This document shows positions 2,856-35,938 of a DNA stretch of 37,418 nucleotides, piece by piece. The DNA lies in IMG/VR virus record IMGVR_UViG_2695420585_000012; one strand, 5' to 3'. The notes beneath the pieces were generated by a model that saw only the letters and a program-made list of their open reading frames with translations, was not told the DNA's origin and searched no databases. The stretch is from a virus (taxonomy: Duplodnaviria; Heunggongvirae; Uroviricota; Caudoviricetes). Numbering within the stretch: the first letter of the stretch is position 1; every line of letters starts with the position of its first letter. The position numbers and the translations under genes are program-made.

Positions 2856-3074
2856 TCAAAGAGAGAGCGCCACCTGTCCTGATTTCATTGGATGCGGCTG
2901 AACCGGATTTGACTCTTTTGGCGTTGCAATCGAACGAACAAAAGTTTCATGGGTAACAAAAGTATGGCTGCAGTTAATGTTCTGGCACTGGTTGTAACGC
3001 TCTTTGGTCAATGAAGATACCTGAAAACTGCTGCGAGTATGGGCGGCACTTCCACACAGTGGGCAAATCATCAT
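2856..3074 (-). CDS. ogr: Ogr/Delta-type zinc-finger late-gene transcription activator
   Basis: About 72 aa from internal Met (MMICPLCG...) with CxxC...CxxxxC pattern resembling P2 Ogr; GGGGAGA Shine-Dalgarno upstream; the 83-aa track ORF probably over-extends. Confidence 0.8.
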   Translation of the reverse strand: MMICPLCGSAAHTRSSFQVSSLTKERYNQCQNINCSHTFVTHETFVRSIATPKESNPVQPHPMKSGQVALSL

Positions 3075-3164
3075 TTTTCGAGTTCTCCCCATTTTTGCTA
3101 AATTCACAATAATGATACCGCATTATTCCATTTTGAAAACTTAAAAGTTCTCCATTACGAAGAA

Positions 3165-4265
3165 TCATTCCATTTCGAAATCATCAATCTTCACTTCAAG
3201 CTCCAGACTGGTCGTAAAACCGTTATCCGGGCTGACGGTATGTGTCAGAGTCGTAATGGTCCATTCCGCATCATCTATCGGCTGTTTAAAACCACTGACC
3301 TTCACAGGCATTTCCGTGTAGAGATCTGCCCGCCCTTCCGCCAGTTGTAGCGAGAATGACGCAACGCCGCGTTGCAGGCGTTCCCACTGCATTTTTGCCG
3401 CTCGTTCGGCGTTGCTCCGGTTGGCATAAGTGCGATTAAGTACCAGCACGTTTTCATCCGTCCCCACCAGGTAATCGCCCTGCTTCGCTTCCGGCTCTTT
3501 CTTCTGCTTCTTAGTCCTGCGCTTACGCTTCACCGTAGTGCTTTCTTTCTTCGCGGGTTCGCGGGTATGCAACCAGCTGGCAATTACGCCCGTATAGGCT
3601 CCGCGATCTGCCAGGGTAAAGCGGTGACTGTCGCCGTCCTTGCGTGTGATAGTGATCACCGGCAGAGGTTTACCGCTGGCGCTTTTGCCCTGTCCCTGCC
3701 GGATGAATAACAGATTGCCATTTTTCACCGACGCGATGGCACCGTACTGTCGCGCCAGCCGCATCAGAAAACTGCCGTCACTCTCATTGGTCTGGTCTAT
3801 ATGTTCCACGGGTTTATCTGACAGGTCTTTACCCAGTGCCATCTTCAGTTTGTGCCGCGCAGCTATTTCCTTCACCACTTCCCCAACGGTGGTCTTGTGC
3901 CACGACTTTTCACGACGGGTATTCAGCGTTTCACGAAAATCAGCACTTCGCGCCCGGATAGTCAGGCGGTCCGGTGCGCCAGTGTGTTCAATCTCGTCCA
4001 CCGTGAATGCCCCTTTCGGGAAAAGCGGCTGCCCCTTCCAGCCCAGCGCCAGCGTAATGACCGCACCACGGCGCGGCAGCACGATTTTTCCATCGGCGTC
4101 GTCCAGCTCCAGATCAAGCTGGTCCGCTTCAAAGCCCCGGTTATCTGTCAGCGTCAGCCCCATCAGGCGGTTGTCCAGCACAGTGGTGATATCCCTGCCT
4201 TCAATACTGATGCTGAATGCCGGAGTTTTGTTGCCTTTGTTAAGCAGTTCAGAGCTGAAATTCAC
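3165..4265 (-). CDS. D: Tail protein gpD
   Basis: 366-aa ORF with P2 gpD-like sequence and position (last late gene before ogr). Confidence 0.85.
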   Translation of the reverse strand: MNFSSELLNKGNKTPAFSISIEGRDITTVLDNRLMGLTLTDNRGFEADQLDLELDDADGKIVLPRRGAVITLALGWKGQPLFPKGAFTVDEIEHTGAPDRLTIRARSADFRETLNTRREKSWHKTTVGEVVKEIAARHKLKMALGKDLSDKPVEHIDQTNESDGSFLMRLARQYGAIASVKNGNLLFIRQGQGKSASGKPLPVITITRKDGDSHRFTLADRGAYTGVIASWLHTREPAKKESTTVKRKRRTKKQKKEPEAKQGDYLVGTDENVLVLNRTYANRSNAERAAKMQWERLQRGVASFSLQLAEGRADLYTEMPVKVSGFKQPIDDAEWTITTLTHTVSPDNGFTTSLELEVKIDDFEME

Positions 4266-4747
4266 GACAGCAGCCCTCCCACCGTTTTACTGATATCGCT
4301 TAAGGCAGATGTTGCCGTTCCCTGCAGATTATTCAGTTGCGCACTGAGATCACCGAACATATCGGGCAGGGATTCATCCACGCGTTTTAGCGACAGGGTG
4401 AACTCAATCCGGCGCGGCATACCGTCGCGGAAAAACTCCGTTTTAGTCTGATTCAGTCCCTCAATCACATACATGCCGTAAATCGTGCCGCTGCCTTCAA
4501 TCAGGGGCCATGCTTTCCCCTGTTCTGCCATCTGCTCCAGTGCCAGCAACGACAGCCTGCCGCCTGTTATTTCCGGCATAAGAACACCGGAAAGCGTCAG
4601 CATGTCGTTTTCCGGTCCCAGAAACTGCGTGGACGGACGTCGGTTTACCCGACTGTTTGCCGCATGTCGCCAGCTGCGTTGATACTGCAGTTCCTGATAC
4701 GGAACGGTGCGCAGCATAAACACGTACAATCCCAGCACCATCATCAT
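4262..4747 (-). CDS. U: Tail protein gpU
   Basis: 161-aa ORF; start overlaps T stop and stop overlaps D start; P2 gpU-like order. Confidence 0.8.
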   Translation of the reverse strand: MMMVLGLYVFMLRTVPYQELQYQRSWRHAANSRVNRRPSTQFLGPENDMLTLSGVLMPEITGGRLSLLALEQMAEQGKAWPLIEGSGTIYGMYVIEGLNQTKTEFFRDGMPRRIEFTLSLKRVDESLPDMFGDLSAQLNNLQGTATSALSDISKTVGGLLS

Positions 4748-7700
4748 GCGTCGTATCCCCCCTGATCGCTGTAGTTACTCCTGGCTTTTGCCTTCAGCCT
4801 GCGTTCACGTTCATCAAGCTGGCGTGCCACCTCCCGCGCAATATCCTGCGCACTTTGTCCTGGCTGCGTCTGGATGATGATCTGCGTCGGTGCCTCAATC
4901 CGGTGAACGGGCGGCACAGCAGCTACGCGACTCACCATCGCTTCACCGCCTTTCGCGGGAAGCGCCAAAGGATGCAACGGTGGAAGCTCTGCTGGCGCGG
5001 CAGCAACTCCCATCATTCCGGCGACAACCGCAGCCAGTGCAGCGGTATTTCTCCGGCTGGTCACGTTTGCCGGACCGTTGACAATTTCCGGCCCGTTTTC
5101 ACCGACAATGCCGAACTGCCCGCGCGGGATATAGCCGCCGCTGTCATACATCCCCGCAAAGCCATATCCCCATGACGGAAAACCACCCGATGGCATCATC
5201 ACTTTACCGTCTGCATTCACCGTCGCAGGTTGCTGACGCGTCACGCTTTCCGGCAGTTTCGCCTTTGCAGCCTCTTTACTGACAATGCCGAGTTTCTCCA
5301 GCAACCAGGAAACGCCGGATTTCAGGGAGTCCAGCGGATGCATGACCATATTCAGCCCTTCTGCCAGTGCCTCCCCGAATCGTCGCCCCATTGCCGCTGC
5401 GCTCTGCAGTTCGGCAGAGGTCGACTTAACGGGCGTCAGCAGATCAGTAAACCAGCCCCACAGCGCCTGCACTTTGTCGCCAATCCACTGGAACACGGGC
5501 TTAAGCGGTTCGAACGCTGCACTGATGGGACCTGCCGCCGCTTTGAATCCTTCCACCACGCCACCGAGAAATGCGGTGATGGGTTGCCAGTATTTCCAGA
5601 CAACCAGCGCCACGCCCGCCAGTGCAGTAACCACAAGACCTATCGGACTGAGCAGAGCACCTAACAGACCAGATATGGCATACAGGGTAACGCGCAGCAT
5701 CGCCAGTGGACCAGATGCCAGTACTCGCAGCACCGTGCCTGCGGCGGCCAGTCCACCGCGCAGTACCGCCAGAGGATTCATAAACATCACAGCAACAGCA
5801 CGTAAACCGGATAATCCAGACCGCAAAAGTGCAACCGGCGCACCTGCTACAGTTTTCAGGACATTTCCCGTCAGTGATGCCGTGCGGCGCAAAGACGACA
5901 ACGGCGCAGTAAGTAAACCTGCGGCGTTGCCCGATGAAGCAAGCCCGCGTCGCAGCAGTGCCAGTGGTGCGCCAGCCAGCCAGGACAACGCGCTGCTTGT
6001 TCGAGTTACTGCTGCCGTAACGGAAGGTAACGTTTTGATACCCAGCACAGAGAATCCCAGACGGATCACTGCCAGCGGCCCCAGCACTGCAGCCAGCGCC
6101 ACCGCTAAGGTGCCGAGGCCGACGGTAACCGCAGCCACAACAGCCGATGCTTTCATCAGTGTGCCTGTCAGTTCCGGGTTAGCTTCCACCCAGCGACGCA
6201 ACGCCCCCGTGACGCTTTTCACCGTGTACAGAATATCCATCAGCGGCTGGCGCAGCGTTTCGCCCAGGCTGCTGAAGGTGTTCTGCGCTCCGGTTTTGAC
6301 CAGCAACCACTGCGCAGAAAGTGAATCCTTGTTAATGTCGGATTCTTTCTGCATGGAGCCGAGCGCATCATTGCCCGCTGTCAGTTTTAACTGACGCTGC
6401 AGTTCCGGCAGGTTGTTTGCCAGTTTCGCCGCGTCATCGCCAAACTCTTTACCAAACAACATAGTCATGGCAGACAGACGCTTGTCCTGCGGCAGCGCGT
6501 TTACCTTCTCCAGCACGCGCTGGATGGTTCCCATCGCATCCTTCGTCATCTGCTTTTCAATCACTTCAGGATTGAGTTTCAGCAGATTCATCCCTTCAAA
6601 GAAACTCTTGCTTTGCATGGTGGCAATGGACAATTCACGCACCATCGCGTTTGCTGCACTGGCTGCAACCTCTGGCGCAGCGCCCAGTGTCAGGAAGGTG
6701 GAACCCAGCGCCGCCGCTTTACGATAATCCAGACGGTCAGCCACACCGCCCAGACGTTGCATCACATCAATGATGTCTGCCCCTTTCGACATGGCGTTAT
6801 CATCCAGATAGTTCAGCGCATCACCGAGCTGTTCAATATTGCGGGTGGGGATTTTGTAGAGCTGGGCGATTTTCCCCAGACTTTCTGACAGTTCATCCGC
6901 TGGCAGCTCAAAGGCTGTTGCCGCCTTTGCTGCCGTACTGGCGAAGGCCAGCAGGTCACGTTTCTGATCTTCCCAACTGTCGTCAGGGTTTGCGACGTTC
7001 ATGCGCGCACCACCTTCAACCAGTGCAGCGAAATCCACCGCACCGTTTTCCATCGGCAACTGTTCGCTGGCAGCCTTGATGGCATCCTGCATTTCATAAA
7101 AACGTGCAGTGCGGTTGCCATTATCGTCACGCAGACCATTGACCTGCTTTGCCACACCTTTCATGGCATCTTCCATGCTGGTATAGCTTTTTACTGCCGC
7201 CATCACTGGTGCGCCCATTGCCAGCCCTGCAGCCGTGGTGGTGGCTCCGGCACCTGCAATACGATCACGCACCTCCAGCGAACGGGCATAACTGGCACGC
7301 GCTGCATTCATCCTGCGCTGAGCTTCCCCCAGTCGCTTCAGCCGCGCCTCCTGTTTCGAAAGTTCCTGGTTATAACGTGATGTTTCACGGGCTAAACGGG
7401 CAGTTGCTCCCGCATCGTCTTTCGCAGAAATTCCCGCCCGGTACAGTTCAGCACGCACAAGCGCCGTCTGCTGCTGCAGCTTTTTCTGGCGTTCTTCCAG
7501 GCGCTGAACAGCCAGCCGTTGACGGCCCAGAGCAACAACCTGACGTTGCGAAGGCGGCCCCATCGCTCCCAGTTCCTGACTGAGCAAATTTGCACGCTGG
7601 CGGGCATAGTTCAGCCTGTCGCCTAATTTCTGATTTTCTGCCTGCAGCTTTCGGAAGCTGTCCAGACTGCTCCCGGCCTGATCAAGCTGCTTTATTGCAT

Positions 7701-7821
7701 CGCGGGATTTTTTGACAGCAGCAGCCAGTTCTCTTGAACTGGCCTGCGCAGATCGAAATGGGCGGGTGAGCTTGTCAACCGCATTAAGAATGACCTGCAG
7801 ACGCAGGTTGTTATCACTCAT
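4744..7821 (-). CDS. T: Tail tape measure protein gpT
   Basis: 1025-aa Ala/Gly/Leu-rich ORF with coiled-coil N-terminus and repeated PLAxLRxGL-like motifs; directly follows E/E'. Confidence 0.85.
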   Translation of the reverse strand: MSDNNLRLQVILNAVDKLTRPFRSAQASSRELAAAVKKSRDAIKQLDQAGSSLDSFRKLQAENQKLGDRLNYARQRANLLSQELGAMGPPSQRQVVALGRQRLAVQRLEERQKKLQQQTALVRAELYRAGISAKDDAGATARLARETSRYNQELSKQEARLKRLGEAQRRMNAARASYARSLEVRDRIAGAGATTTAAGLAMGAPVMAAVKSYTSMEDAMKGVAKQVNGLRDDNGNRTARFYEMQDAIKAASEQLPMENGAVDFAALVEGGARMNVANPDDSWEDQKRDLLAFASTAAKAATAFELPADELSESLGKIAQLYKIPTRNIEQLGDALNYLDDNAMSKGADIIDVMQRLGGVADRLDYRKAAALGSTFLTLGAAPEVAASAANAMVRELSIATMQSKSFFEGMNLLKLNPEVIEKQMTKDAMGTIQRVLEKVNALPQDKRLSAMTMLFGKEFGDDAAKLANNLPELQRQLKLTAGNDALGSMQKESDINKDSLSAQWLLVKTGAQNTFSSLGETLRQPLMDILYTVKSVTGALRRWVEANPELTGTLMKASAVVAAVTVGLGTLAVALAAVLGPLAVIRLGFSVLGIKTLPSVTAAVTRTSSALSWLAGAPLALLRRGLASSGNAAGLLTAPLSSLRRTASLTGNVLKTVAGAPVALLRSGLSGLRAVAVMFMNPLAVLRGGLAAAGTVLRVLASGPLAMLRVTLYAISGLLGALLSPIGLVVTALAGVALVVWKYWQPITAFLGGVVEGFKAAAGPISAAFEPLKPVFQWIGDKVQALWGWFTDLLTPVKSTSAELQSAAAMGRRFGEALAEGLNMVMHPLDSLKSGVSWLLEKLGIVSKEAAKAKLPESVTRQQPATVNADGKVMMPSGGFPSWGYGFAGMYDSGGYIPRGQFGIVGENGPEIVNGPANVTSRRNTAALAAVVAGMMGVAAAPAELPPLHPLALPAKGGEAMVSRVAAVPPVHRIEAPTQIIIQTQPGQSAQDIAREVARQLDERERRLKAKARSNYSDQGGYDA

Positions 7822-8250
7822 CGTTGGCCCCGCTTCTCTGAATCGCTTTATACCGCCATTCCAGCACTTCGGTCAGCGGCATAACGTCAGTAACGGATGG
7901 CGGCCAGTGAAAGATGGTGGCGATATCAGCCACCAGATCGTCAACCGTCAGGCTGTCGGTAAACCGGCAAGCACCGACTTCTTCAACAAAAAAGTGACAA
8001 CCTCAACCGACATGGCAGTGAGATCTGCCGGGTCCATCTCTGCAATTTCCTGTGCAGTCAGTGCCGGACTGGAGATGCGGGGGATCACGGTCATCATCGC
8101 GTTCACATCCATATCCATAATGGCCTGCAGGCGTGTACCGCGCAGCGCACCGGACTGCGGTTTACGCAGCACAATTTCGGTAATTTCTGTTTTACCGCGC
8201 TTGATAGGGGTATCCAGTTGAATGGTCTTTTCAGTCTGCTTATCGCTCAT
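7814..8250 (-). CDS. E+E': Tail assembly chaperone E+E' (-1 programmed frameshift product)
   Basis: TTTTTTG heptamer at about 7985-7991 in the E frame; the -1 frame is then open for 57 codons and stops at TGA overlapping the T start codon. Confidence 0.6.
7948..8250 (-). CDS. E: Tail assembly chaperone gpE
   Basis: 100-aa ORF upstream of T; ends ...VTFLLKKSVLAGLPTA with the slippery heptamer inside its 3' end. Confidence 0.8.
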   Translation of the reverse strand: MSDKQTEKTIQLDTPIKRGKTEITEIVLRKPQSGALRGTRLQAIMDMDVNAMMTVIPRISSPALTAQEIAEMDPADLTAMSVEVVTFLLKKSVLAGLPTA

Positions 8251-8304: not shown

Positions 8305-8820
8305 TCAGAGGCCGAGGGCGTTGCGGTGCGCTTCCATCAGGTCCACACCGTCCACAATTTCCACCATGTTGATAAGGTCCACTTCATAGAGCACCTCACC
8401 ATTGATGGTCAGCTTCGCGTAGCTGTTGGTACTGGTCACTTTGGTGGTGTTGCTTTCGCCCGTCTTCCACTCACCGGAATCCACTTCTTTGTGACGTCCA
8501 CGCACCACAAGCTCCACGGCCTGCACTTCCCCGGTATCGTCACGCTGGATAGAGCCGGTAAAGCGCAACTGGATGCCATCCACCGTGGCTTTGCCCATCT
8601 GCTTAAACAGCAGCAGTTCAGTACCACCAATGGTAAATTCTGTGTCCAGCGCACTGTCATCAAGCCCCAGATCCACATCCACTGCCCCCGGCATTCCGCC
8701 ACCGCGATACTTCTCATATTTGCGGGTGAATTTCGGCAGCGTCAGCGACTCAACGATCCCCTGCCAGTTGTTCCCGTCGTTAAACAGGTTCAGGTGTTTT
8801 AATTTGCGTGGTAAAGCCAT
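8305..8820 (-). CDS. FII: Tail tube protein gpFII
   Basis: 171-aa ORF, P2 FII-like sequence and position. Confidence 0.9.
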   Translation of the reverse strand: MALPRKLKHLNLFNDGNNWQGIVESLTLPKFTRKYEKYRGGGMPGAVDVDLGLDDSALDTEFTIGGTELLLFKQMGKATVDGIQLRFTGSIQRDDTGEVQAVELVVRGRHKEVDSGEWKTGESNTTKVTSTNSYAKLTINGEVLYEVDLINMVEIVDGVDLMEAHRNALGL

Positions 8821-8829
8821 GTTGTCCCC

Positions 8830-10002
8830 TTACGCGCTGACCTGGCTGGCGAAATTCACCAGGTACTGATCGGTGATGCGCTGACGCAACATCAGGTTTT
8901 CAAGTGGCGGCACTGGCGTGTAGTCGTAGTCGATGGTGAGTTTTCCGGCTTTCAGAGTGTCTTTGTCGTTCACCGACTCGTCCAGCCAGCAATCACCACC
9001 AATGAGATACCCCTGACTGACCAGGCTGCGCATTTTGGCGCGGATGCCCTCGATAATGTCGCGCGCCAGCGACGGGTTCAGCGGTTTGTCCACTGCCCAC
9101 ATGTGCGCTTCTGCCATTGTGTCCGTCAGCACCTGCGCCGTGCGGGTGTAGTTTTCGAAGGCAAAGAGCGGGTCATCACTCAGGCAGCGGGAACCCCAGA
9201 AGCGGAAACCGTCTTTACGCACAAGCGTGGTGACGTCGTTCTGGTTCAGCAGACCTGCATCGGTTGCCGGGTCCTGCAGATCCCAGAACACATCTGCAGA
9301 AATTCCGGTGACACCGTTCACGCCCACGTTGGACAGGCTTTTGTGCCACCCAGTCTGCTCATCAATTTTGGCACGCAGACCAAGCGCACGGGCGGTGGCA
9401 TATGCCGTTGCTTCGGCATTCAGCACCGTGTCCCAGCCAGTAAAGTCGGGCCAGATCAGCATTCCTTCGCGCTGGCTGAAGTTTTCACGGTAAGTGATCG
9501 CCTCCTGTACCGTCTTGCAGCCATACGCTGACAGGTAGGCAAACCCACGCAGGCTTTGCGCCACACTCAGCAACTCAGTCGCAACGGCTTTGTTATCGTG
9601 ACCTGGCACGCCGAGAATGCGCGGTTTAACGCCGAGCTGTGTCTGGGCAGATAACAGGGCTTTCATACCTGTTTTTTTACCTTCAGCAGTCACTGCGCCG
9701 ATGATATTGGTCGTGGTTTCGTCTTCCGTTTCACCCTGCGGCACACGCACAACAATGGTCACGGGTTTTGCCTGGTCAGCGATGGCATCCAGCGAACGGG
9801 CCAGAGTACCTGACTCACCCGCTTTACCGCTGGCAGTCAGCACATCAGTGATCAGCACGGGTTTATTAAGAGGAAACATTTTTGCATCGGCATCATCGCC
9901 CGTGCAGACCATACCCACGATGGCGGTGCTCACCGTGGTAATGGATCGGGTGCCTTCGTTGACTTCAACAACGCGCACCCCGTGGTGGTAATCCTGAGCC
10001 AT
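8830..10002 (-). CDS. FI: Contractile tail sheath protein gpFI
   Basis: 390-aa ORF, P2 FI-like; AGGAGG Shine-Dalgarno upstream of the ATG. Confidence 0.9.
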
Positions 10003-10144: not shown

Positions 10145-10720
10145 TCAGGGGGATTCATTACTCTTATTTGCCGGAAATTTTCTATAAATTGTGGAAACAC
10201 CCACATCAAAAATCAGTGCAATACGCTGTCTTGATTCTCCGGCCTCGAGTAAACGCCCAATCTGTGCCCACTGTTCGGTGGTCAACTTAGGACGGCGTCC
10301 ACCTATTCTGCCTTTGGCACGAGCTGCTGCAGCCAGCCCTGCCCTGGTACGTTCAACTATCAGTTCGCGTTCCATTTCAGCCAGGGCACCCATGACATGA
10401 AAAAAGAAACGGCCCATTGGGGTACTGGTATCAATACTGTCAGTCAGGCTTCTGAAATTCACACCACGCTGGCGCAACTCTTCTATCAGCGTAACAAGAT
10501 GCCGCATACTGCGCCCCAACCTGTCCAGCTTCCAGACAACCAGCGTGTCTCCTGCCGATAGTGTCCTGAGTAGTTTTTTCAGCCCCGGTCTGTCGGACTT
10601 AGTGCCACTGATTTTGTCCTCAAAAATCCGCTCACATCCCGCGCAGTTCAGTGCATTACGTTGCAAATCGGTGTTCTGGTCATTTGTTGACACGCGTACA
10701 TAGCCAATAAGCATGATCAT
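10145..10720 (-). CDS. Serine DNA invertase (Hin/Gin/Pin/Cin family)
   Basis: 191-aa ORF; N-terminal resolvase catalytic region (GYVRVSTNDQ) and C-terminal HTH; adjacent to an inverted-repeat-bounded fibre segment. Confidence 0.85.
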   Translation of the reverse strand: MIMLIGYVRVSTNDQNTDLQRNALNCAGCERIFEDKISGTKSDRPGLKKLLRTLSAGDTLVVWKLDRLGRSMRHLVTLIEELRQRGVNFRSLTDSIDTSTPMGRFFFHVMGALAEMERELIVERTRAGLAAAARAKGRIGGRRPKLTTEQWAQIGRLLEAGESRQRIALIFDVGVSTIYRKFPANKSNESP

Positions 10721-11548: not shown

Positions 11549-11939
11549 GCCATTCAATATCTGGCGCACCGGAAGTATCGACCAGTTCCAGTGCGTCCAG
11601 GTAATCCAGCCACAAATTATATTGTGCCAGTTCCTCACCTTTCAGCCGGCCAATAGCCGCTTTACCAGGCCATTGTTTACTGTTCATATAATCGTTGGCC
11701 TGTTCAATAAGTATATTTTTCATTCCCTCCGCTTCAGCTATTTCCTGTTCATGTGTCTTCGCTGGATATTCAGTAAGTACAGGGTAGTTATCCGGGCTAT
11801 TGATAATAATTTTCCCCGTACTCTGACCATTCATAAGTTCATAATAAAGAGCATCTTCAATATCGAAAGCATCATCGGGAATATCGCTGTTGTTTTCAGA
11901 GAAAAATCCCTGAACAGATGGGGACCATTTCATTTTCAT
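11520..11939 (-). CDS. G: Tail fibre assembly chaperone gpG
   Basis: 139-aa ORF directly downstream of H with overlapping stop/start. Confidence 0.8.
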   Translation of the reverse strand: MKMKWSPSVQGFFSENNSDIPDDAFDIEDALYYELMNGQSTGKIIINSPDNYPVLTEYPAKTHEQEIAEAEGMKNILIEQANDYMNSKQWPGKAAIGRLKGEELAQYNLWLDYLDALELVDTSGAPDIEWPTPPAVQAR

Positions 11940-13357
11940 AATTTCCCAATTCCTAAAATATGGACATCATCAGCCTTACGGGCATTCCAGGTGACAGTTA
12001 CATCGGTAGAGTTATGATTAACTGAGATTGCGTATGCTTCGTTAGTCGCGCCAGAAACTTTTGTGGCAAACACAGCAAACAGGACACCAAATGACTGGGG
12101 CCATTTATAGCCTGACAGCTGATAATTACCATTATCCAGTGTTACAGCTTTGACTGCTGCACTTGATGGAATCTTCAGCCACTGGAGTATCAACCCTCCT
12201 GGCAAAAGTTGTTTTCCATAAAAATCCCTCACACCACTAAATGAAACCATATCCGGTATCTGATTTTCCCCTGTTCCCACCCCCCGTTTTGCCGCTTCTC
12301 CCAAACCAAGGTATGCGAGAAGACCAGCTACATCCTTTCCACTCAAATTGGTAAGCGTATTGTCCAGCGGTTGTTTACCTGCCAGCGCATTAAGCATTGT
12401 CGTGGCAAAGTTCGGATCATTCCCCAGTGCCGCCGCCAGTTCGTTCAGTGTATCCAGTGCAGCAGGTGCAGAACCCACCATTCCTGCAATCGCCGATTTC
12501 ACAAAAGCCGTAGTGGCAATCTGTGTATTGTTGACCGACTGCGCCGCCGTGGGGGCTGTTGGCGTTCCGGTGAGTGCCGGACTCGACAACGGTGCTTTTA
12601 GTGCCAGCGCATTGTTAATGGTGGTACTGAAATTCGGATCATTGTTAATGGCTGCGGCTATTTCTTTCAGCGTGTCCAGCGTGGCTGGCGCACCATTAAT
12701 AAGGGCCGTCAGTGCCGCCTGTACAAACGCAGTGGTCGCAACCTGCGTGGTATTATTCCCCGCCGCTGGCGTTGGCGCTTTGGGGGTTCCGGTAAATGTC
12801 GGGCTGGCTTTTGGCGCGTACTGTGAATGCGGGTCCGGTGCGGCAAGATGTTTTGCCATCTGATCATCCGCGTACACCTTCAGCTCCAGTGCCTTGTCAT
12901 CCACATACTTGCGGGTTGCCAGCACTACAGCAGGGTCGATTTTCAGGGTGATATTGTCCGTGCTGCTGGTAATCAGCACCATGCGCACGGTCTGAGTGCG
13001 CCCGCTACCTTCAGCCAGTTGCGGCTTATAGCTTTCCGGGCAGTTGCCCACGGCAATCAATGCCCCGGACTCATCAAACAAGCCCACTTCACGTATCCAC
13101 CAACCGCCCTCGTTTTCAGGGATCACCTGTTCGGCAATAATCTGGCTGCTGTTCTGCGGGTCGATATAAAGCATATTCAGCGCAGCCCGGCGTTTCTCAT
13201 TTACCAGTGCCGTCTGCTTTGCGTCCGGCGTTGGCAATACTCCACCGCCATCGCCCACCGCCATATGGGTAATTTTTAGCGGCACACCGAGCGCGGCGGC
13301 GCTGGCAAGTTTCGCCGCGCCAATATCCGTCAGCAGGGTATAAAATTTTGTGCTCAT
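11936..13357 (-). CDS. H: Tail fibre protein gpH (current 'on' orientation)
   Basis: 473-aa ORF with P2 gpH-like N-terminus (MSTKFYTLLTDIGAAKL); C-terminal 116 aa encoded inside the invertible segment. Confidence 0.85.
   Translation of the reverse strand: MSTKFYTLLTDIGAAKLASAAALGVPLKITHMAVGDGGGVLPTPDAKQTALVNEKRRAALNMLYIDPQNSSQIIAEQVIPENEGGWWIREVGLFDESGALIAVGNCPESYKPQLAEGSGRTQTVRMVLITSSTDNITLKIDPAVVLATRKYVDDKALELKVYADDQMAKHLAAPDPHSQYAPKASPTFTGTPKAPTPAAGNNTTQVATTAFVQAALTALINGAPATLDTLKEIAAAINNDPNFSTTINNALALKAPLSSPALTGTPTAPTAAQSVNNTQIATTAFVKSAIAGMVGSAPAALDTLNELAAALGNDPNFATTMLNALAGKQPLDNTLTNLSGKDVAGLLAYLGLGEAAKRGVGTGENQIPDMVSFSGVRDFYGKQLLPGGLILQWLKIPSSAAVKAVTLDNGNYQLSGYKWPQSFGVLFAVFATKVSGATNEAYAISVNHNSTDVTVTWNARKADDVHILGIGKL
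12288..12309. repeat. Right inverted repeat / crossover site of the invertible segment (inside H)
   Basis: Reverse complement of 10782-10803; encodes GLGEAAK of H. Confidence 0.7.
12368..12808 (-). repeat. Tandem duplication (2 x ~73 codons) within the tail-fibre shaft
   Basis: H residues ~184-256 and ~257-330 repeat (…TGTPxAPTxA…NxTQxATTAFV…APAxLDTL…NDPNFxTT…NALAxK…). Confidence 0.6.
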
Positions 13358-24649: not shown

Positions 24650-24988
24650 TTAACAAACAGCGTATAAACCATCAAATCCAACGGAATGAACCTTTTTTGA
24701 TGCTACTTCATTGCTACGGCGTTGGATCACTTTTGCAATACTTTTTAAAATTGAAGGGGATGCATTGCGAACCTTAACCTGACTCAAAACTTTGGTTACA
24801 CCGAATTTCACTACCAAAACACCAAAGATTTCATCAGAGTATGATTCTGAAATTGAATAAACACCGCTCAGGTCTAAATCTACGGTATACCCTTCTTTAA
24901 TGAACCCTTCAATCTTGTGTCGTTGGGGGATAGCCTGATTGCGCGAAGCCAGGTCACCCTCGGGTAACTTGTATGCGATTTTGTTCAT
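24650..24988 (-). CDS. STAS-like (anti-sigma-factor-antagonist-like) small protein, cargo
   Basis: 112-aa ORF whose start overlaps the stop of the upstream ATPase gene; central DLSGV...SISESYSDEIFGVL segment resembles STAS/DUF4325-type domains (recalled, not searched). Confidence 0.45.
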   Translation of the reverse strand: MNKIAYKLPEGDLASRNQAIPQRHKIEGFIKEGYTVDLDLSGVYSISESYSDEIFGVLVVKFGVTKVLSQVKVRNASPSILKSIAKVIQRRSNEVASKKVHSVGFDGLYAVC

Positions 24989-25962
24989 TACTCTCCTCCT
25001 AACGCCCGCATTATTTCCATAAGCTGAGGGTCATTTTCTTCGCTATCTTTATCGACTGCCAGTTCATGAATCTTAAAACGGCAAGAAATTGCTACACCCG
25101 GCCATTCAGTACGTAATTCAGTATAGCTCACTTCATCACCTATTGCTTCTAAGCATACATTTCCTGAAGCCAGTTGCAATTCCCCATTATATGTTTTTAT
25201 CAATTTCATCAAGTGATATAACCCAAGCCCTTGATGATTATTATCTTTTTCTTTGACCGAAACCCCGTGACCAAACACACTACCCCCAATAAAATCCTGG
25301 GGAAGTTGCTGTGCCCAATCATCCTGCAAATCAGCATGCTTAGATGAATGTCCCTCTTGAATACACCATGCGATCGCATCCTGGTGAGTCTCAATTCCGG
25401 GTATACCAGCTCGCCGCAATTCTCGGAGAAATCCTAACCCACAGTCCGCCAAAGAAAATTCTAAATAGTGCTCTTTTCTTTGTGTGTGGGGTACAGCCGA
25501 ACGTTGTGCAAAAGAAAAACCCGTTGATTTTCCATGCGACCAAACGTTATCGTGAAGCTCACCTATAACATGTGTTAGATCTGTAAGTCCCTTGGGATAA
25601 TCTCTCGGATCACGATCAGGGAATGTTAACTGCCTTACACAACTGTTAATACTACCAGTGGCAACGTCAACAGCTTCAACATTGGTTAATGCTGTAACCA
25701 AACTGTAATTTCTCCCAACATTTACACGTTCCTGTTGATACTGATCCTCGCCCCATAAAGCACCATGTAAATTGATAGCTCGCATATAGTCAGGGCATGA
25801 CAAAACGCAGTTATCTTCGGTAATTTTGTGATGATTCACGTAAGCTGCTAAGACAGTGATAAAACCAGGATGCCAATGGTTGTTTGGCAATTGCAATTCA
25901 TTAGTTTCCTTTTGATGAAACGCAGCGGTATGCACAATAGCGTCTTTTAATCCTAACCCCAT
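24988..25962 (-). CDS. GHKL/Bergerat-fold ATPase (histidine-kinase-like, RsbW/SpoIIAB-type) with N-terminal extension, cargo
   Basis: Visible N-box ELHDNVWSH, G1 box DCGLG and G2 box GLGLYHL; lower GC than structural genes. Confidence 0.6.
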   Translation of the reverse strand: MGLGLKDAIVHTAAFHQKETNELQLPNNHWHPGFITVLAAYVNHHKITEDNCVLSCPDYMRAINLHGALWGEDQYQQERVNVGRNYSLVTALTNVEAVDVATGSINSCVRQLTFPDRDPRDYPKGLTDLTHVIGELHDNVWSHGKSTGFSFAQRSAVPHTQRKEHYLEFSLADCGLGFLRELRRAGIPGIETHQDAIAWCIQEGHSSKHADLQDDWAQQLPQDFIGGSVFGHGVSVKEKDNNHQGLGLYHLMKLIKTYNGELQLASGNVCLEAIGDEVSYTELRTEWPGVAISCRFKIHELAVDKDSEENDPQLMEIMRALGGE

Positions 25963-25991
25963 GAACCGAACCTTTTTTATGCATTTTTCTT

Positions 25992-26020
25992 ATCATATAA
26001 CTTAGGACTGATCAGCGCAA
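25992..26020 (-). promoter_or_regulatory. Possible sigma70 promoter for the ATPase/STAS operon
   Basis: On the minus strand TTGCGC, 17-nt spacer, TATGAT, about 30 bp upstream of the ATPase start. Confidence 0.3.
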
Positions 26021-26075
26021 AGATCCCGACACTCTTGAATCATACTAAATTAAGGCATATACCACACAGCGCGCG

Positions 26076-26094
26076 CTCGTATCCCCGCCACGCC
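26076..26094 (-). other. cos: Candidate cos site (cohesive-end sequence)
   Basis: Minus strand reads GGCGTGGCGGGGATACGAG followed by CGCGCGCTG, closely matching the recalled P2/186 ends (GGCGAGGCGGGGAAAGCAC followed by TGCGCGCTG). Confidence 0.35.
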
Positions 26095-26294
26095 TGCCCA
26101 CTTTATGTAGTGGTTTTCATGCACCTGCATGACATAAGCAAAAGCACGCCAGTTCTGGCTGGCATCAGCGAAAACGATCGTCATACTATCATGCGATCTC
26201 ATGCGCCATATGAAGTTTTCCTGACACAGCCTTGGGTTGGGATAACACCTAACTCAGGAAGATTTTTTGTGTGTTTGTAACCCACACCTAGAGT

Positions 26295-27464
26295 TTACCA
26301 ATCCATGTTTGCGGCATTATCCATCTCACGAGTTAAGTAATTAACAAATAAGTCCATATTCCTTTCTGATTTCATCGCCTCCGCATAGGTTCCATTAGTT
26401 ACGTAAGATAGTATTAAAGGACATCCAGATTCAATATAAATTTTTGCTGGGGACAGTTCTCCCTGCCACAAATTTTCAAGAAAATCGTTAATTAATTGCA
26501 TTGCTTCAGGTGCCAAAAAATGCACACCATTTCCAAACTTGAAACGTTCTTTATTTTCTCGATGAGGCAGCAATAGTGGCACAGCCCCTACACTTGAGTG
26601 AAATTCCAATGCTTGCCCATCCTTACCGAAGGCGCCATGGGCTACAAAATTACGCACCTGTTTTCTGAGTATAAGTAAACGATCATAGAACAATTTTAGA
26701 CTGGAAGAGTTAATATCAATGGCTAATTTGAATTTCTCCCCCCATTCTTTTCCAACTTTATCAGCCACATCATTCCCATTTTTTATCTCACCCTTCAAGA
26801 TTGCAATAAGAATGAAAACATGCTCGGTCCAATTGAAAAATGACTCAATTGCAGACGTTGCTAACCACATAGCCTCTCTTCGGAGTTCAATTATCTTATT
26901 TGATTGTTCAAAAGTGGATTGTAACAGGCTGAAAAAATTATCAGACTTAAACTCACTATCAACTTCCAGTTTAGACTCTTGGCCAGCAGCAACTTCATCA
27001 AGCTTCTGTTTATATAGCTCTAAAAAATAGCAAAACCTATCATAAAGAGAATTAGCATTGTTATTAACATTTAGATTTGAAGTCTTTGCTGCATTGTCTG
27101 CAAGCGAGTCAAAAAAATTCGTAGCAGCTTTAACCCCTGCGCAAATATGTCTCAAAACAGTTTTAGCTTGCTCTATATCATCATCACTCTTGATAAATAT
27201 ATCTAAACCAAGTTTACGATGTTCTATAATTACGACAGTCCCATCAATCCGGACTGGGATAGAAAAAGAAATCTTCTCATCAACCCCACGATTTTTAAAT
27301 TTCAGTAAATCTACCAAAAGAAAATAAACGAGATAATACGGAGGTAATGAGTCTCCCAAACCCGAGCGCTTACCCCAAAAATATTCATCAAGCTCGGCAG
27401 ACTCCATTGTCCCTATGACTCTTCGGACGCGTTCTTCAACTTTAGCCAGATCCATTCCCCACAC
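26295..27464 (-). CDS. Hypothetical cargo protein with HEPN-like RNxxxH motif (possible Abi-type RNase)
   Basis: 389-aa AT-rich ORF between the SOS-regulated small gene and cos; motif ILRKQVRNFVAHG. Confidence 0.55.
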   Translation of the reverse strand: MWGMDLAKVEERVRRVIGTMESAELDEYFWGKRSGLGDSLPPYYLVYFLLVDLLKFKNRGVDEKISFSIPVRIDGTVVIIEHRKLGLDIFIKSDDDIEQAKTVLRHICAGVKAATNFFDSLADNAAKTSNLNVNNNANSLYDRFCYFLELYKQKLDEVAAGQESKLEVDSEFKSDNFFSLLQSTFEQSNKIIELRREAMWLATSAIESFFNWTEHVFILIAILKGEIKNGNDVADKVGKEWGEKFKLAIDINSSSLKLFYDRLLILRKQVRNFVAHGAFGKDGQALEFHSSVGAVPLLLPHRENKERFKFGNGVHFLAPEAMQLINDFLENLWQGELSPAKIYIESGCPLILSYVTNGTYAEAMKSERNMDLFVNYLTREMDNAANMDW

Positions 27465-27625
27465 CGCCTTTCAATATCACTTAAGGTATTACAGCCAATG
27501 ACATCGATTAAATACAGCGTAGATAATAGGCAACTTGCTACTGTTTTCAAGGGCTTTCTGTTTCAATCCTTAGTTGACCTTGCTGACGCGAGAATCTAGT
27601 TCTCACGCCAGCAACGCCCCTGCTG

Positions 27626-27814
27626 CTAACCGAGAAGATCCATTACACGGTTATATTCATGGGCACGAATTTTCGCCATCAACTCATCAGTCAGCTCTGA
27701 AACCCACTGCAGAGCCAGCCCCTTCTCTTCATCACTACACTCACTAGCCGCTACAAGCTTAAGAAAAAAATCAATGCGCTGGAGCTTCAAAGACTCCAAA
27801 AAATAGTCCTGCAT
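27626..27814 (-). CDS. Small SOS-regulated protein, possible Tum-like antirepressor
   Basis: 62-aa ORF from the internal ATG with GGAGG Shine-Dalgarno; LexA box in the promoter; the 96-aa track ORF would begin upstream of the operator. Confidence 0.5.
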   Translation of the reverse strand: MQDYFLESLKLQRIDFFLKLVAASECSDEEKGLALQWVSELTDELMAKIRAHEYNRVMDLLG

Positions 27815-27856
27815 TTTTCCTCCTATGACACCACAAGCAATACTGTATGCATAACC

Positions 27857-27872
27857 ACTGTTTATATTTACA
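27857..27872 (-). promoter_or_regulatory. LexA box (SOS operator) overlapping a putative promoter
   Basis: CTGT-TTATATTT-ACAG matches CTGT-N8-ACAG with AT-rich spacer; minus strand has TTTACA, 17 nt, TACTGT around it. Confidence 0.6.
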
Positions 27873-27967
27873 GTATATAATAATCTTACTGATGTAAAAC
27901 GTTTTTTTACGTTCATCAGCCTGATATGCCTGGTATTATTAAGAGCACGAATTGTTAATCCGCGTAA

Positions 27968-33125: not shown

Positions 33126-34082
33126 ATGTCAACACACAAAATCACATTTCGCCATGTTGATGATGCAATGAAAACTGTAATCATGCAGAATCGTGGAGGA
33201 CAACAGGTCATTGACCGAATTTTGAAAGCTTATGGCTTCACTTCACGTCAAGCATTCTGTAACCACTTAGGGATATCCCAAAGCACAATGGCGAACAGAT
33301 ATGCTCGTGATACCTTCCCTGCCGACTGGGTCATAATCTGCAGCATGGAAACTGGCGTGTCGGTTGAATGGTTGGCATTTGGTACCGATAACACAGTAGA
33401 GGCTGTCACACATAATACAGAACAGAACCACCATAAAGATGGTAAGGAGATTCATTCTCTCACTTTAGACACAAAATCCCCAAATGAGAACAATACTCAC
33501 CGAAAGAACGAGAGCCTCATTGAGGTTAATCAAGGAGGAAAAGCGGCAATCGAGCGAATAGTTATCGCCTATGGATTTAAGACAAGGCAAGCTCTAGCGG
33601 ATCACATTGGTGTTTCAAAAAGCACATTAGCCAATCGTTACATGAGAGATACCTTTCCAGCTGATTGGATCATCCAGTGCGCACTTGAAACCGGAGCTTC
33701 ATTAATGTGGCTAACAACCGGTAATGGTCCTGTCTTTGAAGACGCTAAGAGCGATATTATTGCTATCACACGGAAAAAAGTTATAAATGGTATGTTGTTT
33801 GATACAAATTATCTCCCTTTTGATAAAACCATGTTACCCAGCAAGGTGAAAAAACCCATATCTATAGTAGATGAAGGAAATGTATATCTTGCAGACAAAG
33901 CATTTGATGAAGTAACCGATGGAAAATGGTTAGTTGAAATCGAAGGAAAATTTAGTGTTAGAGATCTAACCAGAATTCCAATTGCAAAAGTAAAAGTATC
34001 TAATGAAAGTACAACTTTTGAATGTCTATTAGCGGATATTAATGTAATAGCAAAATGTTTTGGTATATATAAGGATATTTAA
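33126..34082 (+). CDS. CI-like immunity repressor with duplicated N-terminal domain
   Basis: 318-aa ORF; two ~62-aa repeats each with an AYGF...ANRY.RDTFPADW...ETG...WL.G pattern, ~58% identical to each other, then a C-terminal domain; resemblance to 186 CI is from memory. Confidence 0.7.
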   Translation: MSTHKITFRHVDDAMKTVIMQNRGGQQVIDRILKAYGFTSRQAFCNHLGISQSTMANRYARDTFPADWVIICSMETGVSVEWLAFGTDNTVEAVTHNTEQNHHKDGKEIHSLTLDTKSPNENNTHRKNESLIEVNQGGKAAIERIVIAYGFKTRQALADHIGVSKSTLANRYMRDTFPADWIIQCALETGASLMWLTTGNGPVFEDAKSDIIAITRKKVINGMLFDTNYLPFDKTMLPSKVKKPISIVDEGNVYLADKAFDEVTDGKWLVEIEGKFSVRDLTRIPIAKVKVSNESTTFECLLADINVIAKCFGIYKDI

Positions 34083-34865
34083 ATGACAGACCTTCCTAAC
34101 AATGAAGAGATGCTTCTTTATGCCAAAAGGAACCTTGAGTTTTTCATTAAAACATTCTACTTACACTTTTATTCTGACATTGAGTTATTGCAAGCCCCAG
34201 CTCAACCTGAAACAGAAGAACAACGACTGAAACGCTTAATATCCGAAAAAGAGAGTTTCTTTCAATCTGGCTTGGTAATACTTTTTAATTCTGCTGAAAT
34301 ATATCTAAAGTCTATAATTGCTGAGCATAGTGTTTATTTACTTTTAAAAGAAGTAAAAGACTGCTATAAAAACAAATCTTTTTTCGAATGTTCAACATTA
34401 GACGCAACCGAACTACATAGAATAGCACAAAGTATCAGTGGGCGAAATCTTTCACCGCGCTTTAATGAAATTTATGATATTTTGCGCAAAGAAAGAAATA
34501 AAGTAATTCACTTAGGTAAAAGTAATAATAAAGAAATACGTAAAGACTTTTTAAGTGCATTTCTAATTTTTCGAGAGGAGATATATCAAGAGCCTCTTAA
34601 TAACCTGGTTCATTGCTTGATAAATGATAAAAACATGCCTGAACAAAAATTAGTCGAGGCAAAGAAAAACTATGCAGCAAGCATTATAGACATGATGAAA
34701 ATATTTTTTCCTTTAGATGATATTTTAGCCAACATATATAAGATTGATGGAAAACCGAAAAATTGGAATGTTTGTACTAATTGTCAAACTCCGGGGAAAA
34801 CACTCGCCGTCATATCTAAAACTAAATCAATTTGCTTATCATGTGATTTTAAAATAGGATTGTAA
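34083..34865 (+). CDS. Hypothetical cargo protein with HEPN-like RNxxxH motif and C-terminal CxxC...CxxC ribbon
   Basis: 260-aa AT-rich ORF starting immediately after the repressor stop; motif ILRKERNKVIHLG; C-terminal CTNCQ...CLSCD. Confidence 0.55.
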   Translation: MTDLPNNEEMLLYAKRNLEFFIKTFYLHFYSDIELLQAPAQPETEEQRLKRLISEKESFFQSGLVILFNSAEIYLKSIIAEHSVYLLLKEVKDCYKNKSFFECSTLDATELHRIAQSISGRNLSPRFNEIYDILRKERNKVIHLGKSNNKEIRKDFLSAFLIFREEIYQEPLNNLVHCLINDKNMPEQKLVEAKKNYAASIIDMMKIFFPLDDILANIYKIDGKPKNWNVCTNCQTPGKTLAVISKTKSICLSCDFKIGL

Positions 34866-34867
34866 AC

Positions 34868-35938
34868 ATGGAAAACTTAAAATACATACCTTTTAATCAA
34901 GTAGATTTTTCTGATGTTTTTTTTGACTCTTTAAAATCCGATTATGCTCATGGGTTTATTGATTGGTTCCATTCTAAATGTAAATCAAATGATTATGCAT
35001 ATGTCCTTTATGATGAACAAAATAAAATTGATGGTTTTTTGTATCTAAAAACAGAAGTAGGTATCATTGAAGATACAAAACCAAATATTCCTGATGGTAT
35101 TCATCTAAAAGTTGGAACATTTAAATTTAATCCAAAAGGAACTCTTCGTGGTCAACGATTTTTAAAAAAAATATTCGATCACGCTCTAGATAATAATGCT
35201 AACAATATATATGTGACTGTTTTTGAAAAACATGACTACTTAATTAGACTATTCAAAATCTATGGCTTTATAGATATTGGAGTAAAAGAATCTGAAAATG
35301 GTGTAGAGCGAGTACTAATAAAAGAAATGAATAGTAATGCTCTTACGGGCGATATACTGTCAGATTATCCATTTATTAATAACAGAGGCAGTGAAAATAA
35401 ATTCTTGCTTTCAATATACCCCGTATTTCATACTCGTTTATTCCCTGACTCAAAATTAATTACAGAGTCACCAGACGTTGTTGCTGATGTATCATATGCA
35501 AATAGCATTAGAAAAGTATATATTTGTGGCATGTCAGATGTTGAATTAATGAAGCCAAACGATATAATCGTTATATACCGAACATCCGATAATCAAGGGC
35601 CTGCATATTACCGTTCTGTTGCTACTTCTTTATGTGTAGTAGAAAAAGTTAGAAATATAAACTCTTTCGTTACAGAGAAAGAATTTCTAAATTACTGTTC
35701 TAGATATTCTGTTTTTACAGAATCTGAGCTTAAAAGTTTTTATAGAACAAAAAAATACCCATATATTATAAGCTTTACATATAACCTTGCTTTGCCCAAA
35801 AGACTAAATCGTGCTAAACTTATTTCTGAAGTAGGATTATCCCCGCGAGCTTACTGGGGGATCATGAAGTTAACAAACGAACAGTTTAATAGCATTATTA
35901 AACTTGGTGGCGTCAATGAAAGTATTATTGTCAATTAA
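34868..35938 (+). CDS. Hypothetical cargo protein, possible GNAT-like N-terminal domain
   Basis: 356-aa AT-rich ORF 2 nt after the preceding stop; segment GTFKFNPKGTLRGQRFLKKIFDHAL...YGFIDIG loosely resembles a GNAT acetyl-CoA-binding region; C-terminal half unassigned. Confidence 0.45.
   Translation: MENLKYIPFNQVDFSDVFFDSLKSDYAHGFIDWFHSKCKSNDYAYVLYDEQNKIDGFLYLKTEVGIIEDTKPNIPDGIHLKVGTFKFNPKGTLRGQRFLKKIFDHALDNNANNIYVTVFEKHDYLIRLFKIYGFIDIGVKESENGVERVLIKEMNSNALTGDILSDYPFINNRGSENKFLLSIYPVFHTRLFPDSKLITESPDVVADVSYANSIRKVYICGMSDVELMKPNDIIVIYRTSDNQGPAYYRSVATSLCVVEKVRNINSFVTEKEFLNYCSRYSVFTESELKSFYRTKKYPYIISFTYNLALPKRLNRAKLISEVGLSPRAYWGIMKLTNEQFNSIIKLGGVNESIIVN

Follow-up and report, generated by a model that had tools for sequence, protein, structure and literature searches.

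A P2-like prophage tape measure protein of 1025 residues with a unit-wise variable repeat array in its hydrophobic region

The tails of tailed phages are built according to a ruler principle in which a longer tape measure protein (TMP) gives a longer tail, and the tube protein FII and the sheath protein FI of P2-like phages are polymers whose length is set by the TMP. To our knowledge, the TMP of P2, gpT, has never been tested by in-frame deletions. In siphophages, TMP length varies by gain and loss of short units (Belcaid et al., 2011; PMC3271669), and in phage TP901-1 the tail becomes shorter when units are deleted from the TMP. The shortening is proportional to the in-frame deletion, and it was also seen when a hydrophobic region was affected, with a reduction from 118 to 107.6 nm (PMC5099701). 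In three Burkholderia P2-like phages measured in one study, TMP lengths of 842, 920 and 1075 aa go with tails of 140, 150 and 160 nm, respectively (PMC3091744), while the tail of P2 itself measures 135 x 18 nm (PMC2771037). Here we demonstrate the identity and synteny of a TMP gene in a stretch of 37,418 nucleotides (the window), the repeats that the protein contains, and the sites at which its length differs among relatives. The gene was already known: it is the ordinary, correctly annotated TMP gene of a common P2-like prophage of E. coli, belonging to the Wadgaonvirus/Fels-2 group.

The gene occupies positions 4744..7821 on the minus strand, starts with ATG and stays open through 1025 aa, which bears out the length given in an earlier sequence-only reading. 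Judged by its sequence it encodes a tail tape measure protein, orthologous to gpT of P2. The profile TIGR01760 (tape_meas_TP901) matches aa 200-567 over positions 2-349 of its 349 with 310.6 bits (cut-off 28.8) and PF10145 matches aa 246-457 with 67.4 bits (cut-off 33.2), both above their curated cut-offs, and phrog_28 matches with an E value of 1e-198. The gene neighbourhood is that of the F operon of P2. On the minus strand, from 10002 down to 2856, the genes for sheath, tube, E, E', T, U and D and an Ogr-type zinc-finger ORF follow one another, and the annotated order FI, FII, E, E+E', T, U, D, ogr is common to P2, Fels-2 and Escherichia phage 500465-1. Tail tube FII (8305-8820; PF04985, 202 bits) and tail sheath FI (8830-10002; PF04984, PF17482, PF22671) together span 8305..10002. 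The tail assembly chaperones gpE (7948-8250; PF10109) and gpE+E' span 7814..8250; the latter, reconstructed from the sequence, comprises 145 aa and arises by a -1 frameshift at T TTT TTG (7993-7987), an arrangement matching that of P2, and its stop (7814-7816) overlaps the TMP start. The TMP gene is thus directly downstream of the frameshifted E/E+E' pair, and it is directly followed by gpU (4262-4747; PF06995, 150 bits) and the hub protein gpD (3165-4265; PF05954, 96.5 bits), which together cover 3165..4747. Profile matches and gene order both confirm that the ORF had been identified correctly as a tape measure gene. We rejected a fusion or mis-annotation of the ORF, since a match to at least 80% of the gene is present in 964 complete E. 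coli genomes, its length is exactly 3078 nt in most of the matches listed, and PGAP calls it a TMP gene. A similar gene is present in 1089 of 5426 complete E. coli genomes, and the annotation 'phage tail tape measure protein' is carried in about one fifth of them.

The closest described TMP is that of Escherichia phage 500465-1 (Wadgaonvirus, Peduoviridae; NC_049342, YP_009949239), annotated as such, which also has 1025 aa and is 99.3% identical in amino acids and 98.7% in nucleotides, differing by a handful of substitutions; its flanking genes and repeat array match those of the window. The gpT proteins of Fels-2, SopEPhi and RE-2010 (Felsduovirus) have 935 aa and are 76% identical over the whole length, agreeing in gene neighbourhood, in the order of domains and in the C-terminal motif, but their repeat array is far shorter. 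They lack a block of 86 aa (aa 609-694; 5740..5997, minus strand), which equals four units (two super-periods of 43 aa) and appears as a single contiguous alignment gap. Of the 90 residues that the TMP of Fels-2 is shorter by, 86 are explained by this gap. At the DNA level, the Fels-2-type gene stops resembling the window near nt 1760 of the gene, immediately ahead of the array. P2 gpT is more distant (29% identity in a global alignment), and blocks at either terminus and behind the hydrophobic region are conserved; tblastn of the TMP against P2-type records aligns aa 4-874 in two pieces (E 1e-29), so that homology extends along the protein. In both proteins, N-terminal helices precede a TP901-type core, and the central hydrophobic region terminates with KYW(Q/E)P and is followed by a conserved segment. 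Gene T of P2 (NC_001895, 19850..22297) comprises 2448 nt and encodes 815 aa, as in a second P2-type record; the roughly 800 aa given for P2 in the earlier reading were therefore correct, and the difference to the window TMP amounts to 210 aa. These are distributed over the array (112 aa), the C-terminal third (about 82 aa, within aa 862-1025) and other sites (about 16 aa). The central hydrophobic region measures 204 aa in the window TMP versus 92 aa in P2, in which it contains no PLAxLR units. The extra length relative to P2 comes mainly from the run of 21-22-residue repeats.

The repeats are embedded in a protein of mostly helical prediction. An AlphaFold2 model of the full TMP with 32 homologues has a mean pLDDT of 40.9, and DSSP assigned to it a mostly helical structure over aa 3-843 that is confident only at about aa 30-160 (pLDDT 72-89) and in a shorter stretch around aa 210-250 (59-76). 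The N-terminal region of long helices (aa 3-192; 7246..7815, minus strand; helices 3-86, 92-128 and 136-192) gives weak matches of the SMC/Rad50 coiled-coil type and is likely a coiled coil. It is followed by the TP901-family core (aa 200-567; 6121..7224) and by a first transmembrane-like segment (aa 554-581; 6079..6162), which is strongly hydrophobic (Kyte-Doolittle mean 1.88, 19-residue window maximum 2.38) and, being the place where the self-match at a lag of 43 aa begins, is itself a diverged repeat copy. In a search of solved structures marginal matches to TMP chains were obtained only (9j1k_J, E 0.008; 8kea_G, E 0.16). The C-terminal third (aa 862-1025) is mostly coil in the low-confidence model, and its approximately 82 extra residues probably do not serve as a ruler. 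It includes a conserved motif at aa 885-926 (...GGYIPRGQFGIVGENGPEIVNGPANVTSRR...; 5044..5169, minus strand), predicted to be non-helical, most of which is missing in P2 gpT; the latter is without the GQFGIVGENGPEIV... motif, aa 900-938 lying opposite a gap in the alignment. In tblastn, TMPs of unrelated Vibrio, Xanthomonas, Acinetobacter and Pseudomonas phages matched the window TMP in this stretch alone, with 55-69% identity. The motif is common to the window TMP and siphophage TMPs.

The array consists of about eight units of 21/22 aa with a super-period of 43 aa (aa 582-746; 5584..6078, minus strand). Each of the first seven units has Pro or Leu-Pro at its start and then some form of L-A-x-L-R, and the last (aa 726-746; PIGLVV...) is without Arg and represents the second transmembrane-like segment. 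Six strict matches to the pattern P[LVI][AS]x[LIVM]R are located at aa 582, 619, 640, 662, 683 and 705, with spacings of 37, 21, 22, 21 and 22 aa; in shuffled sequences the pattern was found 0.02-0.03 times on average and twice at most, six being reached in none of 5000. Ungapped self-comparison of the protein yields its best diagonal at a lag of 43 aa (score 138, aa 554-698), followed by outstanding lags of 64, 21 and 86 aa. Whole-protein shuffles gave a mean score of 37 and a maximum of 53, composition-matched shuffles of aa 550-760 a mean of 39 and a maximum of 68, and the observed score was reached in none of 300. Kyte-Doolittle peaks of 2.4 in a 19-residue window (aa 554-598 and 711-745) flank the array, and within aa 582-746 there are 11 Arg and 3 Lys residues and no Asp or Glu, while Leu, Ala, Val and Gly account for 60%. 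The PLAxLRxGL-type repeats and their placement in the hydrophobic centre, both noted before from the letters alone, hold up in these analyses. Tandem Repeats Finder reported no repeat in the window DNA, and pairs of array units are about 50-63% identical in nucleotides; the array in the window is thus no recent duplication and its units are old. A search with the array against 1.84 billion representative proteins returned 36 matches, mostly fragments and all within this TMP family, so that the array is not a domain shared more widely. With the repeat-bearing TMPs of siphophages the protein shares the gain and loss of units, and with that of TP901-1 also the TIGR01760 family. However, the units in TP901-1 and those of Belcaid et al. 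are 11 or 18 residues long, carry Trp or Phe as markers and are found away from the hydrophobic regions, whereas those described here have 21/22 aa, are Pro-initial and Arg-rich rather than aromatic, form the hydrophobic region itself and belong to a contractile-tailed phage. Lags of 11 and 18 aa are absent from the top 20 self-similarity lags of the window TMP. It resembles the unit-gain/loss TMPs without being a member of the aromatic repeat class.

What the extra units do can be proposed by analogy with characterised TMPs. The chaperones gpE and gpE+E' would hold the TMP, its C-terminal part would anchor it in the gpD/gpU hub, and it would thread the growing tube as an extended, mostly helical oligomer, at the end of which the polymerisation of tube and sheath would stop. 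Among the 210 additional residues, the 112 contributed by the array of cationic hydrophobic 21/22-aa units starting with P-L-A-x-L-R would lengthen the tail. We lean towards a tail that would be measurably longer than that of P2, and infer a length of about 150-170 nm versus 135 nm. The less probable alternative, which nevertheless carries some weight, is that the extra units are not part of the ruler, that the array forms helical hairpins or is otherwise compact and serves chaperone binding or insertion into the inner membrane as a DNA conduit, and that the tail stays near the 135 nm of P2. Helical hairpins add half the length per residue. The strongest self-similarity, at 43 aa or two units, would suit a hairpin, and the array, free of acidic residues, is bracketed by two transmembrane-like segments. 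The AlphaFold2 model, with a pLDDT of about 30 across the array and the low mean given above, is useless for telling a hairpin from a straight helix. The tails of the Burkholderia trio do grow with TMP length, but with a slope of only about 0.086 nm per residue, about half the 0.15 of an alpha-helix, so that not every added residue adds length (PMC3091744). The authors of the TP901-1 study tie hydrophobic regions to chaperone recruitment, yet the deletion within such a region shortened the tail (PMC5099701). Yersinia phage MLG42, the TMP of which has 1021 aa and is 75% identical, is the one relative found with published dimensions, namely a tail of 234 nm and a head of 128 nm. Its tail:head ratio of 1.82 is lower than in phages with an 813-aa TMP in the same table (about 2.2), but these dimensions are unreliable, since a head of 128 nm is implausible for a genome of 31 kb and points to a problem of scale, and they were discarded as evidence on tail length. 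For phages with this TMP we found no reliable micrograph in the literature, nor did we find a relative with equal TMP length and standard P2 tail dimensions. Cartapus has never been visualised by EM (PMC9928086), papers on Anderson typing phages, tailocins and urinary coliphages give no tail lengths for this clade, and the SEN8 paper states tail dimensions only as a range and for other phages.

The length of the array is polymorphic in nature, and natural alleles of 935 (Fels-2), 961, 1003, 1025 and 1047 aa are known, with TMP alleles found on megabase-length contigs and protein clusters of 9661 members for 1025 aa and 1764 members for 1003 aa. Indels among the 120 closest homologues fall mostly within aa 582-733, with sizes in the array including -22, +22, +11, -37, -50, -64, -75 and -101. 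The unit at aa 683-704 (PLAVLRGGLAAAGTVLRVLASG; 5710..5775, minus strand) is present in zero, one or two copies in close relatives: it is missing in 1003-aa alleles, with three different crossover points, and exactly doubled in 1047-aa alleles, in which a 66-nt tandem duplication (2.3 copies, 96% match, in L007) lies at an unchanged chromosomal site. Direct repeats of 20 nt mark unit starts at 5691-5710, 5757-5776 and 5949-5968. They are spaced by 66 and 192 nt. Adjacent copies fit the -22/+22 classes, and the outer pair (first and third), at a distance of 258 nt, fits the 86-aa difference from Fels-2. Array length shifts by whole units, probably through unequal recombination or slippage, which would act between the conserved 5' ends, about 20 nt long, of the units. 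It is very improbable that the 1003-aa, 1047-aa and rarer length variants are artefacts of assembly or gene calling. The odd lengths of 856, 891, 922, 924, 950 and 975 aa are indeed singletons, many of them from automated read-archive assemblies, and some deletions, which may leave the protein without function, take out the second hydrophobic segment; the 1047-aa protein, however, was found on 24 contigs, including one of more than 1 Mb, the large 1003-aa class is also present on a 5.1-Mb contig in addition to its three layouts with distinct crossover points, and the DNA identity between units (about 55-60%) is too low to mislead an assembler. That the repeats are a mere by-product of the Ala/Leu/Gly/Val bias in the hydrophobic stretch can practically be dismissed, for although aa 582-746 is of low complexity, Tandem Repeats Finder reports no repeat in the window DNA and the array is confined to a narrow family, the shuffles stay far below the observed values (68 versus 138 for the best diagonal, two versus six motifs) and the differences among relatives are whole units, a perfect duplication of 22 aa among them, by which a chance or compositional source was rejected.

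The account as a whole, that of a gpT-orthologous TMP with a unit-wise variable array and probably a somewhat longer tail, is in our judgement likely to be right. A bolder proposal, which we regard as unlikely, is that each unit of 21/22 aa would act as a tick of the ruler that adds about one ring of tube and sheath to the contractile tail. By our own arithmetic, 135 nm for the 815 aa of P2 correspond to 0.166 nm per aa, and 22 aa therefore to about 3.6 nm; the rise per ring is approximately 3.8-4 nm in P2-related tails. With Arg and no acidic residues, the units might dock to the lumen of the tube one ring at a time. For P2-like phages or the related R-type tailocins, we found no direct test of the number of residues per ring in the literature. 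If the proposal were true, the alleles of 1003, 1025 and 1047 aa and the short array of Fels-2 would represent a ready-made series of quantised tail lengths. As a discovery the finding is of small value, concerning a correctly annotated TMP of a very common E. coli prophage. Its practical value is modest and lies in near-isogenic natural alleles that are one 22-residue unit apart from each other and four units from Fels-2. Such a series is usable to gauge how many TMP residues correspond to one ring of tube and sheath in contractile tails, and it could show whether residues of the hydrophobic region count as part of the ruler.

The minus-strand ORF at 4744..7821 (1025 open codons, ATG start) is securely identified as a tape measure protein (TMP). 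It matches TIGR01760 (TP901-family tape measure core) with 310.6 bits (cut-off 28.8), PF10145 (PhageMin_Tail) with 67 bits and, with an E-value of 1e-198, the phrog_28 family "tail length tape measure protein". The flanking genes are those of the P2 F operon, arranged as in P2 and comprising sheath FI (8830-10002), tube FII (8305-8820), gpE (7948-8250), T itself (4744..7821, -), gpU (4262-4747), gpD (3165-4265) and an Ogr-type ORF (2856-3107). Upstream of the TMP, the slippery heptamer T TTT TTG as in P2 (7993-7987) yields by -1 frameshifting a 145-aa tail assembly chaperone E+E', the stop codon of which (7814-7816) overlaps the TMP start; this mirrors P2, in which E has 91 aa and E+E' 142 aa (PMC3091744). 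The window TMP is a known and routinely annotated protein rather than a new one: PGAP labels it "phage tail tape measure protein" in complete E. coli genomes, 1089 of 5426 of which show a megablast match to the gene (964 with at least 80% of it), 80% or more of the gene's length is found in each of 32 phage records, and the TMP of RefSeq Escherichia phage 500465-1 (Wadgaonvirus, Peduoviridae) likewise has 1025 aa and is 99.3% identical. The record of Yersinia phage vB_YpM_MLG42 (PP599993) wrongly labels its TMP gene "tail fiber assembly protein".

The sequence-only reading had described a TMP longer than the roughly 800 aa given for P2 and carrying PLAxLRxGL-type repeats, and this is confirmed in full for length, P2 comparison and repeats. 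That value was correct, since canonical P2 gene T has 2448 nt and encodes 815 aa, which makes the window TMP 210 aa longer; gpT of Fels-2 has 935 aa and the TMPs of the 186-type Yersinia phage MHG7 and the Fels-2-like MLG42 have 813 and 1021 aa. Parsed from a three-way TMP alignment, the excess over P2 comprises 112 aa (8 + 86 + 18) in the central hydrophobic region, approximately 82 aa (26 + 39 + 10 + 3 + 4) in the C-terminal part and approximately 16 aa net elsewhere. In P2 gpT the hydrophobic stretch at this central position has just 92 aa and is devoid of PLAxLR units. Fels-2 gpT is 76% identical, and nearly everything that the window TMP has in excess of it falls in a single uninterrupted block of 86 aa (aa 609-694).

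The motif P[LVI][AS]x[LIVM]R recurs at aa 582, 619, 640, 662, 683, and 705 (spacings 37, 21, 22, 21, and 22), while shuffles of the whole TMP or of aa 550-760 contained 0.02-0.03 such motifs on average and two at most, six being reached in 0 of 5000. Ungapped self-comparison also bore out the repeats, with a top lag of 43 aa (score 138, aa 554-698) and further peaks at lags 64, 21, and 86; the shuffle maxima were 53 for the whole protein and 68 for the composition-matched region, and the observed score was reached in 0 of 300 shuffles. Because of the motif spacings and these peaks, aa 554-746 read as about nine units of 21/22 aa, paired in a 43-aa super-period. The diverged first segment (aa 554-581) and the diverged last unit (aa 726-746) are the two most hydrophobic, transmembrane-like segments. 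The 165 consecutive residues of aa 582-746 (5584-6078, -) include 11 Arg and 3 Lys but neither Asp nor Glu. This stretch, cationic and hydrophobic, could be turned towards the lumen of the tube or towards the membrane. In the array AlphaFold2 reached a pLDDT of ~30, too low for a usable model. Pairwise identity of the units is 10-55% for amino acids (most pairs 20-50%) and ~50-63% for nucleotides, and Tandem Repeats Finder detected no DNA tandem repeats in the window, so the array here is an old one. A query with aa 575-731 against 1.84 billion representative proteins returned only 36 matches, mostly fragments of the same protein, and the array is confined to this TMP family.

Aligned individually to the window TMP, the 120 closest homologues (at least 75% identity) range from 842 to 1186 aa, the extremes being a truncated entry and gene-fusion calls, respectively, and most indels lie in aa 582-733. 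The classes are -22 aa (1003 aa; 14 entries, one a cluster with 1764 members), +22 aa (1047 aa; 6 entries, one on 24 contigs), +11 aa (1036 aa), -37 aa (988 aa), -50 aa (975 aa), -64 aa (961 aa), -75 aa (950 aa), and -101 aa (924/925 aa). Unit 683-704 is absent from the 1003-aa alleles, with three different crossover points within the PLAVLR/PLAMLR motif, and is present in two identical copies in the 1047-aa alleles. In one 1047-aa allele, compared as DNA, the gene contains a 66-nt tandem repeat (2.3 copies, 96% match) and elsewhere matches the window in alignment base for base; three units are missing in the 961-aa alleles and four in Fels-2. Three unit starts in the window (5691, 5757, and 5949) are marked by a 20-nt direct repeat whose copies are 75-85% identical, adjacent copies being 66 and 192 nt apart, which fits the -22/+22 classes, and the first-to-third distance of 258 nt fits the 86-aa difference from Fels-2. 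Because these spacings match the allele length differences, we infer that units are likely gained and lost via unequal recombination or slippage between their conserved 5' ends. The host gene at the ogr end of the prophage (935-2620, +) encodes an Asp-Al_Ex/TrkA_C permease, and the prophage with the 1047-aa allele (DNA records L007 and L008) adjoins the same gene, hence both are alleles at one chromosomal site. No array indels were found in the 1021-1025-aa homologues of 80-84% identity from Citrobacter, Enterobacter, Klebsiella, Lelliottia, Scandinavium, and Salmonella, and the long array is therefore the stable, modal state.

The TMP is mosaic beyond the array as well. A 1139-aa class (relatives P0001 and P0015-P0037) has 114 extra residues, an insertion placed at aa 894-928. 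In a 1053-aa class (P0065) an unrelated Gly-, Asp-, and Glu-rich segment stands in place of the PLAxLR array, and a 1107-aa class (P0042) has a C-terminal extension. The C-terminal motif at aa 885-926 (5044-5169, -; ...GGYIPRGQFGIVGENGPEIVNGPANVTSRR) is 55-69% identical in TMPs of unrelated Vibrio, Xanthomonas, Acinetobacter, and Pseudomonas phages and is probably a module for hub binding that has been widely exchanged; P2 gpT differs in that it lacks most of it (aa 900-938).

Elsewhere in the window, a Gin/Cin-type serine invertase (Resolvase + HTH_7; 10145-10720, -) adjoins the tail-fibre genes (11936-13357 and neighbours), which implies that a host-range segment is invertible here, as in Fels-2 and 500465-1. 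The CI-type repressor (33126-34082) and the integrase (36366-37418), the ORF of which continues past the window end, flank a two-gene cassette of very low GC (34083-35938, +; GC 0.30). The first ORF of the cassette (260 aa) shows no more than a weak DUF3644 match, and its second (356 aa) matches PDC-M11A, a candidate defence family of PADLOC (E 2e-130). The cassette resembles a defence moron at the hotspot usual for P2-type phages. In the repressor ORF (33126-34082, +; listed as 318 aa) two stretches match the Phage_CI_repr HTH domain, in addition to a match to the CI C-terminal domain, and either translation really begins further downstream or the ORF has two copies of the N-terminal DNA-binding domain. 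A second low-GC island (24650-27916, -; 0.40-0.45), flanked by the portal-side genes and by the replication gene gpA, contains ORFs of 324 and 389 aa with no match in Pfam or PADLOC and a 112-aa ORF weakly matching part of DrmA (E 2e-6).

TMPs are established rulers of tail length. In TP901-1, the type member of TIGR01760, the tail shortens linearly with deletion size from 118 to 65 nm, and deleting within the first hydrophobic region likewise yields a shorter tail, of 107.6 nm (PMC5099701). A tail longer than that of P2 is a reasonable prediction from the longer TMP. Starting from the P2-type tail of 135 x 18 nm (PMC2771037), strict proportionality would give ~170 nm, 0.15 nm per extra residue ~166 nm and the Burkholderia slope of ~0.086 nm per aa ~153 nm; a single study of P2-like phages reports 842 aa/140 nm for KS14, 920 aa/150 nm for KS5, and 1075 aa/160 nm for KL3 (PMC3091744). 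The lower end is favoured because of this low slope, the 43-aa super-period, which is compatible with helical hairpins, and the C-terminal additions, which are predicted to be non-helical and are probably hub-binding; the proportional reading is probably an overestimate. For phages of this TMP clade no trustworthy published tail dimensions were found. The Cartapus virion was never visualised by EM, and the values published for MLG42 (tail 234 nm, head 128 nm) are implausible for a P2-like phage with a genome of 31 kb and point to an error in the scale bar, the tail:head ratio being 1.82 versus ~2.2 for others in the same table. Given tails of 133-176 nm among phages with identical 813-aa TMPs and the 128-nm MLG42 head, this table is not decisive on tail length.

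We know of no description of an array with unit gain and loss in TMPs of P2-like phages. Unit duplication or loss as a route of TMP evolution is a described idea (PMC3271669; PMC13585406), and the gain and loss of units in the P2-like TMP is a variant of this known theme. What is added is only that an array of 21/22-residue units, gained and lost in nature, makes up more than half of the length surplus over P2 and almost all of that over Fels-2.
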